Source of the DNA: Escherichia coli
Lineage (GTDB): Bacteria; Pseudomonadota; Gammaproteobacteria; Enterobacterales; Enterobacteriaceae
Length of the DNA: 64,000 bases
Assembly: GCF_001677475.2 (NCBI RefSeq)
Contig: NZ_CP012498.1
Direction: 5' to 3' (one strand)
Shown here: in pieces, positions 1 through 6,000 of the stretch
How the letters are laid out: the number at the start of each line of letters is the position of its first letter
Numbering within the stretch: the stretch's first letter is position 1
Made by a program: the position numbers

Positions 1-3000
1 AAATGCGCTACGTCAACCCGGTCACTGGTGGCTATCCGATGCCGTCGATGGGCGCTTTCCTGCAACTGTTACCAAAAGGATTTACTTCACGTGTGGCGCG
101 TACGACTGACAGCACCATCTATCATGTGGTGGAAGGTGGCGGGCAGGTGAGCATCGGCAATGAAACCTTCAGCTTTAGTGCAAAAGATATCTTCGTGGTG
201 CCGTCCTGGCACGGTGTGTCGTTCCAGACTACGCAAGATACCGTTTTATTCAGTTTTTCGGACAGACCGGTACAAGAAGCCCTGGGGCTGTTTCGCGAAG
301 CGCGTTATTAATTTGGGAGAGAAAAAATGACTCAATACGTATTCGAACCTCAAGCGCCCGTTACCGTACCGGTTGTTGGCAGTGATGAACAATTCCCCGT
401 GCGCCGCGTTTACTGCGTCGGGCGTAACTATGCCGCCCATGCCCGCGAAATGGGCTTTGATCCGGATCGTGAACCGCCATTCTTCTTCTGCAAACCGGCG
501 GATGCCGTTGTTCCGGTTGCCGCAGGCGAAACGCTGGCGCTGCCGTATCCGGCGCAGACCGATAACTACCATTACGAAATTGAACTGGTGGTGGCCATTG
601 GTAAAAAGGGCAGTGATATCCCGCCGGAAAACGCCCATGAATATGTCTGGGGTTATGCCACGGGTCTTGATATGACTCGCCGTGACCGTCAGATGGAAAT
701 GCGTCAGATGGGCCGCCCGTGGGAAATCGGTAAAGCGTTTGATCTCTCAGCGCCCATAGCGCCGCTGCACAAAGCCAGCGATATCGGCGGTATTGATAAT
801 GCGCCAATCTGGTTACAGGTTAACGGCGAAGATCATCAGCGCAGCGATATTCGTCATCTTATCTGGTCAGTGAATGAAACCATCAGCTACCTGTCTGGTT
901 TCTTTGAACTGCAACCGGGTGATCTGATCTTCACCGGTACGCCGGAAGGGGTTGGCCCGGTAGTGAAAGGTGATGTGATCACGGGTAACGTCGAGGGCTT
1001 AACCCCTATCGCGGTGAAGATTGTCTGAGGTGCATGATGAAGCTGTACAGTTTTTTTAATAGTTCAGCATCGTACCGGGTACGCATTGCGCTGGCGCTGA
1101 AAGGCATTAATTACCAGACCGAAGGGGTGAATATCCGCATTGGTCAGCAAAATGAACTGGCCTATCGGCGGATGAATCCGGTCGGGCTGGTGCCGACGCT
1201 GCTGACTGACGAGGGGGAGTCACTCGGTCAGTCGCTGGCGATTATTGACTGGCTGGAGAGGCACTACCCGCAAGTTCCGCTGGTGCCGCAGGAAGAACCG
1301 ACCCGCAACAAGGTGCTGGAAATTGTCTATGCCATCGCTTGTGATATTCATCCATTGAATAACTTGCGCGTGCTGCGCTACCTGACCGAAGAACTGAACA
1401 TCAGTGAAGAAGAAAAAAAACGTTGGTATGCGCACTGGATCCAGCAAGGGTTAAGCGCGGTGGAACAACTGTTGCGCCAGAACCAGTCGGGGCAATTTTG
1501 TGTGGGCGAGACGCCGACGCTGGCAGATTGCTGCCTTGTCCCGCAGTGGGCGAACGCGCTACGCATGAACTGCGATTTGAGCGGGTATCCACGCTGCAAA
1601 GCGGTGTACGACGCCTGCACACAGCTGCCAGCGTTCATTGCTGCAGCGCCAGAAAATCAACAAGATAAAATTTCAGCCTGACCAGGAGAACTATAATGAC
1701 GAAAGTGACACGCGCAGTAATTGTGGGAGGCGGGATCGGCGGTGCGGCAACTGCGCTGTCACTGGCCCGCCAGGGGATCAAAGTGGTGCTGCTGGAAAAG
1801 GCGCATGAGATCGGTGAGATTGGTGCGGGCATCCAGTTGGGGCCAAATGCGTTTTCGGCGCTGGACAGCCTCGGCGTCGGCGAAGTTGCCCGCCAGCGCG
1901 CGGTGTTTACCGATCACATTACCATGATGGATGCGGTGAACGCCGAAGAAGTGGTGCGCATTGAAACCGGGCAGGCCTTTCGTGACCATTTCGGCGGCCC
2001 TTACGCGGTGATCCACCGGGTTGATATTCACGCCTCGGTGTGGGAAGCGGTACTGACGCATCCGGACGTGGAATATCACACCTCCACCAACGTCGTGGAT
2101 ATTCGCGAGACGGAAGACGATGTAACCGTGTTTGACGATCGCGGCAATAGCTGGACCGGCGATATTCTGATTGGCTGTGACGGCGTGAAGTCAGTGGTGC
2201 GCCAGAGCTTATTGGGCGATGCGCCGCGTGTCACCGGACATGTTGTCTACCGTGCGGTTATCGATTGTGCCGATATGCCGGAAGATTTGCGCATTAACGC
2301 ACCGGTACTGTGGGCGGGGCCGCATTGTCACCTGGTGCATTACCCTTTGCGCGGCGGCAAGCAGTATAACCTGGTGGTAACATTCCACAGCCGCCAGCAG
2401 GAAGAGTGGGGCGTGAAGGATGGCAGTAAAGAGGAAGTGCTCTCTTACTTTGAAGGGATTCACCCCCGTCCGCGCCAGATGCTGGATAAACCGACTTCAT
2501 GGCGACGCTGGTCAACCGCTGACCGTGAACCGGTGGCGAAGTGGGGAACGAAGTGCATAACGCTTGTGGGCGATGCGGCCCATCCGGTGGCGCAATATAT
2601 GGCGCAGGGAGCCTGTATGGCGCTGGAAGATGCAGTAACGCTGGGTAAGGCGCTGGCGCAGTGTGAGGGTGATGCGGCGCAAGCCTTTGCGCTGTATGAG
2701 TCGGTACGAATTCCGCGCACTGCGCGCATCGTCTGGTCGACCCGTGAAATGGGGCGGGTTTACCACGCCGCAGGGGTAGAACGCCAGGTACGTAATCTGC
2801 TGTGGAAAGGGAAATCGCAGGTAGATTTTTATCGGAGTATGGAGTGGCTGTACGGCTGGAAAGAAGACAACTGTCTGCAACCAAGATAATACGACATAGA
2901 ATTCGTTAAATACCATGGAGCCTGTACATAGATTTGTGTAATTATCTTATTTTAATATGTATAATTCTACATTAAAAGAAGGTTAAATTATGGGCAAAGA

Positions 3001-6000
3001 TGTTACAGGCTCTGGTTAATGAACCACGGCAGCCTGACGGCTGCAAATTGAAAACCGCCCTGTTCTGAACTGCACCCCAAAAGTTGGACACTCAACGAAG
3101 TAAGGTGCAGTTTTTTATGAGTAAATATTCTCTCAGCTTTAAGCTTGAGGTTGTGCAGCACTATCTTTCCGGCATGGAAGGGCAGAAAGCGACTGCAAAG
3201 CGTTTTGGTATCGATCACAGTGCCGTTCGTAAGTGGACTGCTGCCTGGAAGCTTCATGGCGAAGCCGGACTTACCACCCGGCATTTCGCCTATTCTCCCG
3301 TCTTTAAAGAGTCCGTTATCCTGCATATGCGTGAGCACCGGTTGTCTGTTCGCGAAGTCTGTGCAAAATTCACTATTCCGGCTTTCTCCACGGTCCTTCT
3401 GTGGGAACGCCTGTATGATGAAGGGGGATTAGAAGCCCTCACTGACAGCCGACGCGGGAGAAAAACGATGCCAGAACGCCCTGAAAATAACCCGGCACCT
3501 TCTTTACAGGCTCCTCTTAACCATGATGAACGAGAGGAACTTGAACAACTGCGTGTTGAAGTGGCTTATCTAAAAAAGTTGCAGGCCTTGCTCAGGGAAA
3601 AAAGCACGTCAAAACGCGGGATAAAACGCAGATCGTGAATGAGTTAAGGCCGGACTTCCCTCTTGCGCGCTTGTTAAAAGCGGCAGGGCTGGCGAGAAGT
3701 ACGTTCTACTGGCAACTGGCGAGCGGTAAAAAACCAGACAAATATGCCGATGATAAGCGGCAGATTTTAACGCTGTTCCATAAACATAAAGGACGGTATG
3801 GATACAGGCGAATCACGCTGGCTATCCGCCGGGAAGGAAGCTTACTGAACCATAAAAAGGTTCAGAGGTTAATGAAGGCGTTAGATTTAACCTGCTGTAT
3901 CAGAAGGAAGAAATACAACTCTTACAGAGGCCGGTATGGGAAAGTGGCGGGTAATGTGCTGAACCGGCAGTTCAGTGCGGATAAGCCCAACCAGAAGTGG
4001 GTAACAGATGTCACGGAATTTAAAATCAGCGGAGAAAAACTGTATCTGTCCCCCGTTCTGGATCTGTATAACGGAGAAATAGTTGCGTATCAGATGGCGT
4101 CCCGTCCTCTTCTGTCGATGGTGGATGACATGCTGTTGAAGGCTGTATCTGTACTGGGTAAAGACGAATACCCGCTGCTCCACTCAGATCAGGGCTGGCA
4201 ATATCAGATGGCGCATTATCAGAACCGGCTTAAGGAGGCTGGTCTGAAACAGAGCATGTCAAGGAAGGGGAACTGTCATGACAATGCGGTGATGGAAAGC
4301 TTCTTCGGCACGCTGAAATCTGAGTGTTTTTACCTGATGGAACACAAGAATATCAGCGAGTTGCGCATGGCTATCGATAATTACATCCACTATTACAACC
4401 ATGAAAGAATAAAACAGAAACTGAAAGGCCTGAGTCCGGTAGAGTACCGAACCCAGGCCCTGATAGCCGCTTAATATAAACCGTCCAACATTATGGGGTC
4501 AGTTCAGTTCGTCCTGTTGTTGCCGCACGCCCCGCAGAATATGTATGCTCTGAGGACCTGTTTTATTAAGGACTCATCCCCTTATGTTGACCCGCAAAAG
4601 TATCGATACAGTTCTGTTCTCTGTTGGTGCTGAGAAGTTCTCACAATGTGAATGGGACTGGATGAAGATGCTCAAACCCATGGCCCCACCACCTGCGATG
4701 GTCGCGGCCTCCATCCTGGAGCACCGTGGTGATACAGCAGCCCTTACCCTACTACAAGATACCGGGGGTTAATCCGTCCTCATGTTGTCCGGTTTTACTC
4801 CCCGTCCGCTGAAACGCCTGTTCAGTGAGTTAGCTGGCCTGGATGTAATCACTCGTTCAATTCAATTCTCTTAATGTGGGAAAATTTCCGAATTCCAAGC
4901 GGCCCCCTCAGTACACGCTCGTAAGAGCCCCTGACGGCCCGCTAACGCGGAGATACGCCCCCGATTGAGGCCGGGACCACTCCGACCGCGCACAGATGCT
5001 CTGTCATGGCTGAAAGCGGTTATGGCTTAGCAGGATGGGGATGGGTAAGGTGAAATCTGTCAATCAGTACCAGCTTAAGCCGGGCTTCGGAGGTTTGGCA
5101 ATGTGCCATATGAAACAGTTGAGTGCCGCCTTCCATGCCGCTGACGCAGCATCCTGGTGACGATATCTGAATCGCTATATACTGTGTATATACACGGTAA
5201 TGACGAGGTGATAAATGGCACAGGTTAATATGAGTTTAAGAATTGACGCTGAACTGAAGGATGCTTTTATGGCCGCTGCAAAAAGCATGGATCGTAATGG
5301 CTCTCAGTTAATCCGGGATTTTATGCGCCAGACCGTTGAACGGCAGCATAATACCTGGTTCCGTGACCAGGTTGAGGCAGGTCGTCAGCAACTCGAACTC
5401 GGTGATGTGCTTCCCCATGATATGGTCGAATCCTCCGCTACTGCATGGCGGGATGAAATGAGCAGGAAGGTTGCCGGTAAATGATGGATATATTCTGGAC
5501 CATGCTGGCCAGCCAGGACAGGAAGCACATTCGTGAGTACATTGCGGAGCAGAACCTGATGTCCGCCATTGAACTGGACGAACGGATTGGTTATTCAGCC
5601 AGCAATCTGGCCGGGCAGCCGTATAAAGGCCGCAACGGTCGTGTGGAAGGTACCCGGGAACTGGTTATTCACCCGCATTTTGTTCTGGTTTATGAGGTCG
5701 ATAGCCAGTGGGGAAAAGTGTATATCCTGCGCGTATTGCATACCGCACAGAAGTGGCCATAGAGGGGCTGTCCGGATATAAAAACGTCTGACGGAGATGC
5801 AATAACCATGAATAATGATGATCTGGCTACCAAACGTGCGCAGACTATTGCTGAAGATCGCCGGATTTTTGTTTGCGAGGTTTAGCTGAACGGACCGTAT
5901 AACTAACTGAAAGACAATGACATTGTCTGTTTTTATAACGGTAATCTCAGGCCATGACAAGCCGCAGCCGTCAGGCTGCCTACTCGATTTCTTTTCTGAT

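Follow-up and report, generated by a model that had tools for sequence, protein, structure and literature searches.

Genes and insertion-sequence remnants at the operon end

The window (the whole 64,000-nucleotide stretch of Escherichia coli DNA analysed here) opens with the 3' part of a gentisate/3-hydroxybenzoate operon, whose last gene (encoding a 3-hydroxybenzoate 6-monooxygenase) has its TAA stop codon at 2887-2889, exactly where a preceding reading made from the sequence alone had set the end of the gene (Table 1). Past this point IS, toxin-antitoxin, toxin and partition DNA is seen, in agreement with the IS, plasmid-maintenance and toxin DNA that the sequence-only reading had described.

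Table 1. Features of the window that bear on the operon edge and on the IS1414-type ends.
Feature	Position	Strand	Basis
Gentisate/3-hydroxybenzoate operon, 3' part	3-2889	+	ORFs; PGAP annotation of 99.2-99.5% identical records
gtdA, 3' end	3-311	+	ORF; PGAP annotation of relatives
FAH-family hydrolase	327-1028	+	ORF; PGAP annotation of relatives
maiA	1034-1681	+	ORF; PGAP annotation of relatives
3-hydroxybenzoate 6-monooxygenase, 397 aa	1696-2889	+	NCBIfam NF006021, 757 bits (cut-off 459)
Spacer, 28 nt	2890-2917	.	Alignments; in all plasmid copies, in no chromosomal copies
IS1414-like (IS256-family) relic, 103 nt	2918-3020	+	82% identity to IS1414 nt 1-110
IS91-family left (terIS-type) end, first part: GAAC, then subterminal palindrome CAGCC-TGAC-GGCTG	3021-3065	+	Similarity to annotated element
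ISEcB1, intact, IS3 family, 1441 bp	3066-4506	+	99.9% identity to annotated ISEcB1; IS3 transposase family matches
ISEcB1 orfA	3084-3638	+	
ISEcB1 orfB	3635-4474	+	
IS91-family left-end fragment, continued; truncated	4507-4824	+	Sequence comparison with NZ_AP042571.1
yacA/yacB (RelE/ParE-type) toxin-antitoxin pair	5215-5762	+	RelE_StbE family match; annotation of relatives
Truncated IS1414, left 401 nt	29847-30246	+	98.3% identity to IS1414 of pCFSAN004181P
IS1414-type right end (only one in window), 142-nt 3' fragment	41266-41407	+	91.5% identity to IS1414 nt 1176-1317

Across complete E. coli genomes the operon occupies 598 chromosomal places (about 11% of these genomes) and 26 plasmid places. 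The chromosomal cluster (found in E. coli, e.g. O157:H7, as well as in Klebsiella and Salmonella, whose records are about 80-81% identical to the window's gentisate cluster) has the same content and gene order as the plasmid copy; in E. coli it is set as yohJK-LysR...monooxygenase-dusC and shares 5,958 bp of homology at 95.3%. Among the matches listed, chromosomal copies are 94.5-97.2% identical to the window, and the homology stops at 2883-2889 (i.e. at the monooxygenase stop codon), from where the chromosomes continue towards dusC with sequence unrelated to the spacer. In comparison to the chromosomal cluster, the plasmid copy has a different LysR gene 3' end, lacks dusC and the chromosomal downstream sequence, and is bordered by IS debris. 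The allele of the window recurs at 99% identity or more in 19 records, with the best plasmid alleles at 99.2-99.5%; an exact scan of GTDB species-representative genomes with the gene end AACTGTCTGCAACCAAGATAA, undertaken in search of a donor of this allele, gave no match. In strain OkiPb01695, gtdA is intact on the plasmid and annotated as partial on the chromosome.

Aligned with independent IS1414/IS256-family insertions, the IS sequence is conserved from 2918 onwards (GAGCC...), and the spacer is therefore 28 nt long; accordingly, the distance of 28 bp given by the sequence-only reading is retained, and the start of the IS256-like end is moved from 2917 to 2918. A start 15-20 nt further upstream, as drawn by BLAST matches, was rejected on account of the weak similarity of the flank and of the GAGCC with which the conserved IS begins. 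A 24-mer of the spacer had no match in the exact scan of GTDB species-representative genomes, and a scan of 2700-3200 for promoters and terminators found none. The relic keeps an intact left terminal repeat (26/26 bases shared with IS1414, an IS256-family element carrying astA/EAST1), and its transposase gene has decayed at the start, with an ATG at 2990, a stop after 9 codons and a 2-nt deletion. Among the matches listed in complete E. coli genomes, no copy of the relic above 84.1% identity lies away from the junction; a search for its full-length parent in E. coli genomes and all plasmids returned IS1414/IS256-family elements at 75-84% as best matches.

At GAAC an IS91-family element cuts the relic with its terIS end, and over 360 nt this end is 96% identical to the one that precedes tnpA in a complete element of NZ_AP042571.1. 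The motif GAAC|CACGG CAGCC-TGAC-GGCTG (3021-3043) has a single occurrence in the window (0 expected by chance), and the GAAC+CACGG end is the same in three different contexts. As in the rolling-circle elements of this family (IS91, IS801, IS1294), which have terIS and oriIS ends, the window end belongs upstream of the transposase gene, has its palindrome by a bottom-strand GTTC (the family's terIS features and GTTC/CTTG targeting were taken from PMC13181058) and shows no target duplication; the window copy differs from them in that its terIS side alone survives, over about 360 nt, with neither HUH transposase gene nor oriIS. After 4824 we found neither an IS91 (HUH) transposase ORF nor an oriIS end by a GTTC/CTTG target, and in NZ_CP062880.1, another plasmid with the relic, where a complete IS91-family element was sought, the fragment is even shorter. 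The IS91-family end is itself split by ISEcB1, a full-length IS3-family element (orfA/orfB and terminal repeats); its target duplication reads GTTC on both sides (3062-3065 and 4507-4510), and the uninterrupted IS91-family end in plasmid NZ_AP042571.1 provides its empty site.

The replicon and the distribution of the junction

From 1 to 27882 the window is collinear with the closed 242-kb STEC plasmid pCFSAN004179G (1-3024, 5622-8361, 9618-21758 and 23173-27882 align in a single order at 98-99%), and the shared content comprises the gentisate genes, yacB, sta1, ehxCABD, ccdAB, parA and parM. A second collinear stretch, 41-64 kb, corresponds to the partition and methylase/antirestriction-gene region of pOkiPb01701_2. 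ParA was recognised by a profile match in the window; ParM, ccdAB, ehxCABD and sta1 were assigned from the collinear, annotated pCFSAN004179G, and a second parM region from pOkiPb01701_2. Partition/stability genes thus occur together with toxin genes, in collinearity with closed plasmids, as in a large sta1/ehxA plasmid of LEE-negative STEC; plasmids above 200 kb carrying sta1, astA and ehxA have been described (PMC5009963). The closest relatives, pCFSAN004179G (NZ_CP012501.1), pCFSAN004181P (NZ_CP012499.1) and pOkiPb01695_1 (NZ_AP042571.1), are large sta1/astA/ehxA virulence plasmids of LEE-negative STEC with an operon allele 98.7-99.5% identical to that of the window, and they share with it the operon/spacer/IS256-end junction and the order yacB, sta1, ehxCABD, ccdAB, parA, parM. 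On the other hand, pCFSAN004179G lacks the window's ISEcB1 (3066-4506) and the IS3-family insertions at about 8362-9617 and 21757-23172, and the window's 28-64 kb are arranged differently from the related plasmids.

A junction query (2850-3065, at least 80% covered) retrieved 24 complete E. coli records, all of which are plasmids (24/24, 77-242 kb). Six of them carry the relic at about 99% identity, and the remaining 18 have a full IS1414 that starts at the identical left junction and reaches into yacB as far as window 5625. The picture of an ordinary contiguous plasmid with no heterogeneity at its junction, which the sequence-only reading had named as what would refute it, is borne out only in part: it holds for the gene/IS junction, which is invariant, and fails behind the IS terminus, where the two forms part. 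The relic may represent the ancestral state or have arisen by later recombination, and a polarity between the two forms would be argued only from the intact yacAB that is kept.

No replication-initiator gene was recognised within the 64 kb, and no record in the searched collections covers 80% or more of any of the three long stretches of the window that were searched, so that its plasmid status is drawn from homology. Judged by these comparisons, the window almost certainly belongs to a large mosaic virulence plasmid and not to a chromosome with an island. The option of a large plasmid carrying the gentisate genes, one of two left standing by the sequence-only reading, is supported by the collinearity and by a junction found on plasmids only.

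A proposed history of the operon edge

Taken together, these observations make it very probable that the window is part of a mosaic plasmid of the sta1/ehxA type, and that 2890-3065 represents the nested-IS edge of a captured gentisate module. The boundary is indeed sharp, but of an ordinary kind: three nested IS remnants mark it, and it is not the end of an island or of a 27-kb transposon. According to the history that we propose, this segment would be the right-hand edge of a cargo module of about 6 kb (LysR-mhbT-gtdA-FAH-maiA-monooxygenase), copied once from an Escherichia-type chromosome (from the locus between yohJK and dusC). An IS1414-like element of the IS256 family would first have been placed 28 bp past the operon stop codon, an IS91-family element would then have inserted at GAAC (bottom-strand GTTC) into the beginning of the transposase gene of this first element, and most of both elements would subsequently have been lost; ISEcB1 inserted recently, in this lineage, into the IS91 end that was left, with a 4-bp duplication. 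The nesting, the empty site of ISEcB1, the restriction of the junction to plasmids and the collinearity with closed plasmids are observed, whereas the replicon of this window and the order and mechanism of the steps before ISEcB1 are inferred. Since GAAC at 3021-3024 is assignable to either element, the targeted insertion is likewise a step that we infer.

A different route, which we regard as unlikely, would have brought the module to the plasmid through one-ended rolling-circle transposition of the IS91-family element, with read-through past terIS as far as the LysR gene 3' end; the IS256 relic, the spacer and the operon would have come along. The orientation suits such a capture (the terIS-type end, with GAAC and palindrome at 3021, faces the operon and the IS body points away), and IS91-family elements co-mobilise terIS-side DNA in 1-14% of events (PMC13181058). 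The sharp end of chromosomal homology in the relatives, 55 bp inside the LysR gene, has IS91-family fragments close by, but the complete IS91-family copy lying left of the cluster is peculiar to NZ_AP042571.1, and the left boundary falls outside the window. Moreover, only 360 nt of the element survive, and neither the window nor the relic-form relatives examined hold a transposase gene, an oriIS or a target tetranucleotide. Somewhat more doubtful still is a compound version, in which read-through capture via 3021 would be joined by a perfectly conserved 2918 terminus on which active IS1414 copies might still act in trans; in that case the edge would be a live recombination or transposition hotspot, which would explain the two junction forms across the 24 plasmids.

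Under the nested-IS history that we favour, no new kind of element or mechanism is involved. The gentisate/3-hydroxybenzoate pathway is here almost certainly cargo of an STEC toxin plasmid and not part of the core chromosome, and a strain can therefore carry it twice. We found no discussion of plasmid-borne gentisate genes in STEC in the literature searched, which was limited in coverage. The locus offers a small example of metabolic modules on virulence plasmids, in which IS debris records the order of events.

The second IS1414-type end and the wider window

The 26-mer GAGCCTGTACATAGATTTGTGTAATT, which is the left end of annotated IS1414 and forms an IS256-family terminal inverted repeat at both of its sites, is present at exactly two places in the window (2918-2943 and 29847-29872, both on the + strand) and had matches in 0/100 shuffles. 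The recurrence in the same orientation that had been placed at 29846 is confirmed as to strand and over 26 exact bases, its start being 29847. When the two ends are aligned, as the sequence-only reading had proposed, the 26 terminal bases are identical, but beyond the terminus the identity falls to 82% over 111 nt (2916-3024 against 29845-29955), which is the level of family relatives only. As the relic stands at 82% and the second end at 98.3% identity to IS1414, the two are different IS species. The second fragment extends over the left terminal repeat and the first 113 transposase codons, and its ORF (29919-30260) matches the IS256 transposase family over only positions 1-71 of a 338-position profile. 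With 103 and 401 nt kept, both sites fall short of a complete IS256 element (about 1.3 kb, with a right repeat and an intact DDE transposase gene); in comparison to IS1414, both copies have the identical 26-bp left terminus and are fragments short of the astA region, and the divergence of the 2918 copy amounts to 18%. E. coli often carries IS1414 in decayed form (PMC12585946). The sole right-end fragment abuts an IS3-family copy and its next flank is TGGCGTGG; the 8-bp left flanks of the two left ends (ATACCATG and CCTTGGTG) have no partner there, and the right ends of both elements are lost. The joining of 29847-30246 and 41266-41407 into one split IS1414 was rejected, given their identities (98.3% vs 91.5%), the 775 nt missing between them and their differing flanks.

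The sequence-only reading had seen in these two ends the possible limits of a once-mobile composite unit of 27 kb, i.e. two copies of one IS enclosing sta1, ehxCABD, ccdAB and the par genes. We hold this to be very improbable, in spite of the identical 26 terminal bases, the direct orientation at a distance of 26.9 kb, the toxin genes in between and the ability of IS256-family elements to form composite transposons (e.g. Tn4001). Besides belonging to different IS species, both are left ends in direct orientation, and each has lost its right end and its transposase gene; the sole right-end fragment lies outside the interval, with a flank unlike those of the left ends, and the window has no left and right outer ends of one species. 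Nor is the arrangement conserved: in NZ_AP042571.1 the 28802-30246 block is inverted and lies about 11 kb from the relic, and pCFSAN004179G has no IS1414 fragment at the corresponding place, so that in these relatives the interval is rearranged or absent as a unit; target duplications bounding it were not found either. The left end at 2918, for its part, is constantly joined to the gentisate genes (it was not seen apart from them in the 24 records). In the history that we favour, the end at 29847 is an unrelated IS1414 that was truncated separately.

The other option of the sequence-only reading, a native chromosomal operon with 2890 as the left junction of an inserted plasmid-derived accessory block, finds hardly any credence with us: although the operon is chromosomal in about 11% of complete E. 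coli genomes, the GC content falls after about 6 kb and the window shows no replication gene, the chromosomal alleles reach at most 97.2% among the matches listed (99.2-99.5% for the best plasmid alleles), the chromosomal copies (between yohJK and dusC) run straight to dusC with neither spacer nor IS end, all 24 junction records are plasmids, and the 25 kb downstream are collinear with a closed plasmid that has the same operon on the same side. Genomic-island features are likewise lacking, the operon allele and the junction being plasmid-specific: no tRNA gene occurs in the window, no long direct repeats apart from IS debris bracket the block, and no integrase gene or direct repeat lies at the junction, as the sequence-only reading had said of tRNA and integrase genes. 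The only tyrosine-recombinase ORF found (24239-24835) is situated 21 kb away, beside the ccdAB-equivalent region of the collinear plasmid.

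Nested insertion sequences at the end of the gentisate operon

The boundary beyond the gentisate operon is very probably where a cargo module of chromosomal origin ends within a mosaic virulence plasmid, an edge shaped by insertions of the IS256, IS91 and IS3 families nested in one another. As stated in the sequence-only reading, the monooxygenase gene (preceded by the gtdA 3' end, a FAH-family hydrolase gene and maiA) stops at 2889 (TAA at 2887-2889). The IS256-like end placed at 2917 is likewise present, but its start had to be moved, since alignment with independent insertions puts the first conserved base (GAGCC) at 2918. 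Its repetition in the same orientation was borne out by the 26-mer GAGCCTGTACATAGATTTGTGTAATT, which has exactly two occurrences in the window, at 2918 and 29847 on the + strand, and was matched in none of 100 shuffles; furthermore, no tRNA gene marks the junction, as none was found anywhere in the window. Taken together, the gene stop, the 28-nt spacer, the duplicated 26-mer and the absence of tRNA genes confirm the boundary observation. We also observed a weak resemblance (ATAGAAnnCGTnAAA) among the sequences to the left of three independent IS1414/IS256-family insertions (window 2896-2917; 1780-1805 in each of the two other records, L007 and L008), which could reflect target-site preference or chance.

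Features of the window, with coordinates, strand and basis of assignment
Feature	Position	Strand	Basis or remark
3-hydroxybenzoate 6-monooxygenase, 397 aa	1696-2889		NCBIfam NF006021, 757 bits (cut-off 459)
Spacer, 28 nt	2890-2917		Between monooxygenase stop and IS256-family left terminus
IS1414-like left end	2917-3024		Matches first 110 nt of IS1414 at only 82%
ISEcB1, 1441 bp	3066-4506		99.9% to annotated copies; IS3 transposase matches
IS91-family fragment, right limit	4824
yacAB toxin-antitoxin pair	5215-5762		Next after IS91-family fragment
isrC (Hfq-binding sRNA)	9433-9555	-	Rfam, 146.6 bits; inside IS3-family element at about 8362-9617
sta1, heat-stable enterotoxin STIa gene	11243-11476	-	Read in window; peptide ends ...NTFYCCELCCNPACAGCY
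Enterohemolysin operon ehxCABD (ORFs)	13697-20820	+	Correspondence to ehx genes
IS1414 left fragment	29846-30246		Matches first 401 nt of IS1414 at 98.3%
IS1414 right-end fragment, 142 nt	41266-41407		91.5% to IS1414
Group II intron 1	53114-57873	-	Rfam D1-D4 and D5/6 matches; RT/maturase ORF 55819-57330
Group II intron 2	61337-63634	-	Rfam D1-D4 and D5/6 matches; RT/maturase ORF 61418-63085

The IS1414 homology breaks off at a GAAC tetranucleotide (3021-3024), from which point 360 nt align at 96% identity with the tnpA-upstream end of an IS91-family element that is complete and annotated in plasmid NZ_AP042571.1. This end (GAAC-CACGG-CAGCC-TGAC-GGCTG...) occurs once in the window and was seen in three different contexts, preceded by GAAC each time. 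IS91-family elements are reported to target GTTC/CTTG without duplicating it, and to carry at their terIS end, upstream of the transposase gene, a subterminal palindrome beside a GTTC-type tetranucleotide (PMC13181058); the window fragment has the palindrome and the tetranucleotide, and corresponds to the tnpA-upstream end of the annotated element. The fragment is in turn split by ISEcB1, which is flanked by a duplication of its GTTC target (3062-3065 and 4507-4510) and whose empty (uninterrupted) site is present in NZ_AP042571.1. The structure is thus a nest (IS256-like relic, IS91-family terIS fragment, ISEcB1), and the nesting suggests an order of events in which the IS256-like element would have arrived first, the IS91-family element next and ISEcB1 last. 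A narrower, more speculative reading has the operon mobilised through one-ended transposition of the IS91-family element; it would profit from the terIS end facing the operon, which is the geometry needed for read-through (PMC13181058), but we regard it as unlikely. The IS91-family transposase gene and the oriIS end are lost both here and in those relic-form relatives that were examined.

Chromosomal and plasmid gentisate operons

With regard to the operon as a chromosomally derived cargo module, its segment 1-2916 has 598 chromosomal and 26 plasmid locations across 5,426 complete E. coli genomes (19 records at least 99% identical). Among the matches listed, the chromosomal copies (94.5-97.2% identity) lose homology at 2883-2889; the best plasmid copies (99.2-99.5%) continue through the spacer. 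The chromosomal cluster is situated between yohJK and dusC, and plasmid-chromosome homology extends over 5,958 bp (95.3%), from 55 bp inside the LysR gene 3' end to the monooxygenase stop, downstream of which the sequences are unrelated. Both versions of the gene end in the residues Q-P-R but spell the Arg with different codons, and we therefore place the break after the gene. Exact scans of GTDB species-representative genomes for the donor lineage and the spacer origin (spacer 24-mer and allele-specific gene end) returned no match. Strain OkiPb01695 carries the cluster twice (chromosome NZ_AP042570.1, plasmid NZ_AP042571.1), its chromosomal gtdA being annotated as partial (N-terminus missing) and its plasmid copy being intact; strain N96 also has chromosomal and plasmid copies.

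Plasmid distribution and forms of the junction

With 2850-3065 as the query and a coverage of at least 80% required, 24 records were recovered that contain the junction, every one a plasmid (77-242 kb). Of the two settings proposed from sequence, a chromosome with an integrated island finds no support in this plasmid-only distribution, and a large plasmid bearing the gentisate genes agrees both with it and with the closed 242-kb pCFSAN004179G (NZ_CP012501.1), which window segments 1-3024, 5622-8361, 9618-21758 and 23173-27882 match at 98-99% in a single continuous order (gentisate operon, IS256 element, yacB, sta1, ehxCABD, ccdAB, site-specific recombinase gene, parA, parM); differences in this collinear part are IS insertions. 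Moreover, the part of the window from 41 to 64 kb aligns with a region of pOkiPb01701_2 that holds partition and methylase/antirestriction genes. LEE-negative STEC are known to harbor virulence plasmids larger than 200 kb that bear sta1, astA and ehxA (PMC5009963), and the plasmids matched here belong to such strains; in the window, sta1 and ehxCABD share one stretch of DNA with the gentisate genes. The feature is real, is explained by known element types, and can already be found, with annotation, in two dozen public plasmids.

Six of the 24 records have the relic form (the 103-nt decayed left end; about 99% identity), and 18 carry an IS1414 of full length whose left junction is identical. 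In these 18 (pCFSAN004181P, 10917-12236, and 17 other plasmids) the right flank is the yacB interior (window 5625), and target duplication is absent (ATACCATG vs TATAAAAG); on these two grounds the full-IS1414 form seems to derive from a relic-type ancestor by deletion or recombination (a polarity that we infer), which suggests that the relic terminus took part in such an event with an IS1414 that had inserted in yacB. The invariance of the operon/spacer/IS-end junction across records suggests that it arose once, in an ancestor.

The two IS256-type ends and other repeated elements

E. coli is reported to carry decayed copies of IS1414 very commonly (PMC12585946). In the 2918 copy the transposase start is decayed (ATG at 2990, 2-nt deletion, stop after nine codons); its best matches across all PLSDB plasmids reach 75-83% identity, and no homologue away from the junction exceeded 84.1% among the matches listed for complete E. 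coli genomes. Together with the unequal identity to the full IS1414 of pCFSAN004181P (98.3% vs 82%), this argues that the ends at 2918 and 29847 are different elements related within one family and not two copies of one element.

A composite IS256-type transposon requires left and right outer ends and leaves 8-9-bp duplications. The suggested 27-kb composite unit is not supported: both ends are truncated left ends of different IS species in direct orientation, the sole right-end fragment lies outside the interval with a mismatched flank, block 28802-30246 is inverted relative to the operon in NZ_AP042571.1 (~11 kb from the relic), collinearity with pCFSAN004179G stops at 27882 with no IS1414 fragment after it, and the interval is not conserved as a unit in these relatives. 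Two pairs of direct segmental repeats (6813-8211/33524-34903, 92% identical; 9732-10669/36102-37039, 100% identical) have a similar spacing (about 26.4-26.7 kb); their blocks recur in relatives beside sta1 and IS91 fragments, and they are modules of the mosaic in their own right that do not prolong the IS repeat.

A 1416-bp IS3-family element is present in two identical (100%) inverted copies 16.7 kb apart, a potential inversion substrate; one (21757-23172) is, by comparison with pCFSAN004179G, a simple insertion, and the other (39853-41268) adjoins the IS1414 right-end fragment. An IS21-family element (istA 53677-55176, istB 55173-55928) appears to interrupt the first group II intron; its span 53584-55994 is 99.9% identical to an ISEc10 copy in NZ_AP042571.1. 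A ~240-bp segment occurs three times (4912-5153, 10427-10674 and 36797-37030; about 84-100% mutual identity) and is found in pOkiPb01701_2 just downstream of a repA (1621-1902) that is absent from the window.
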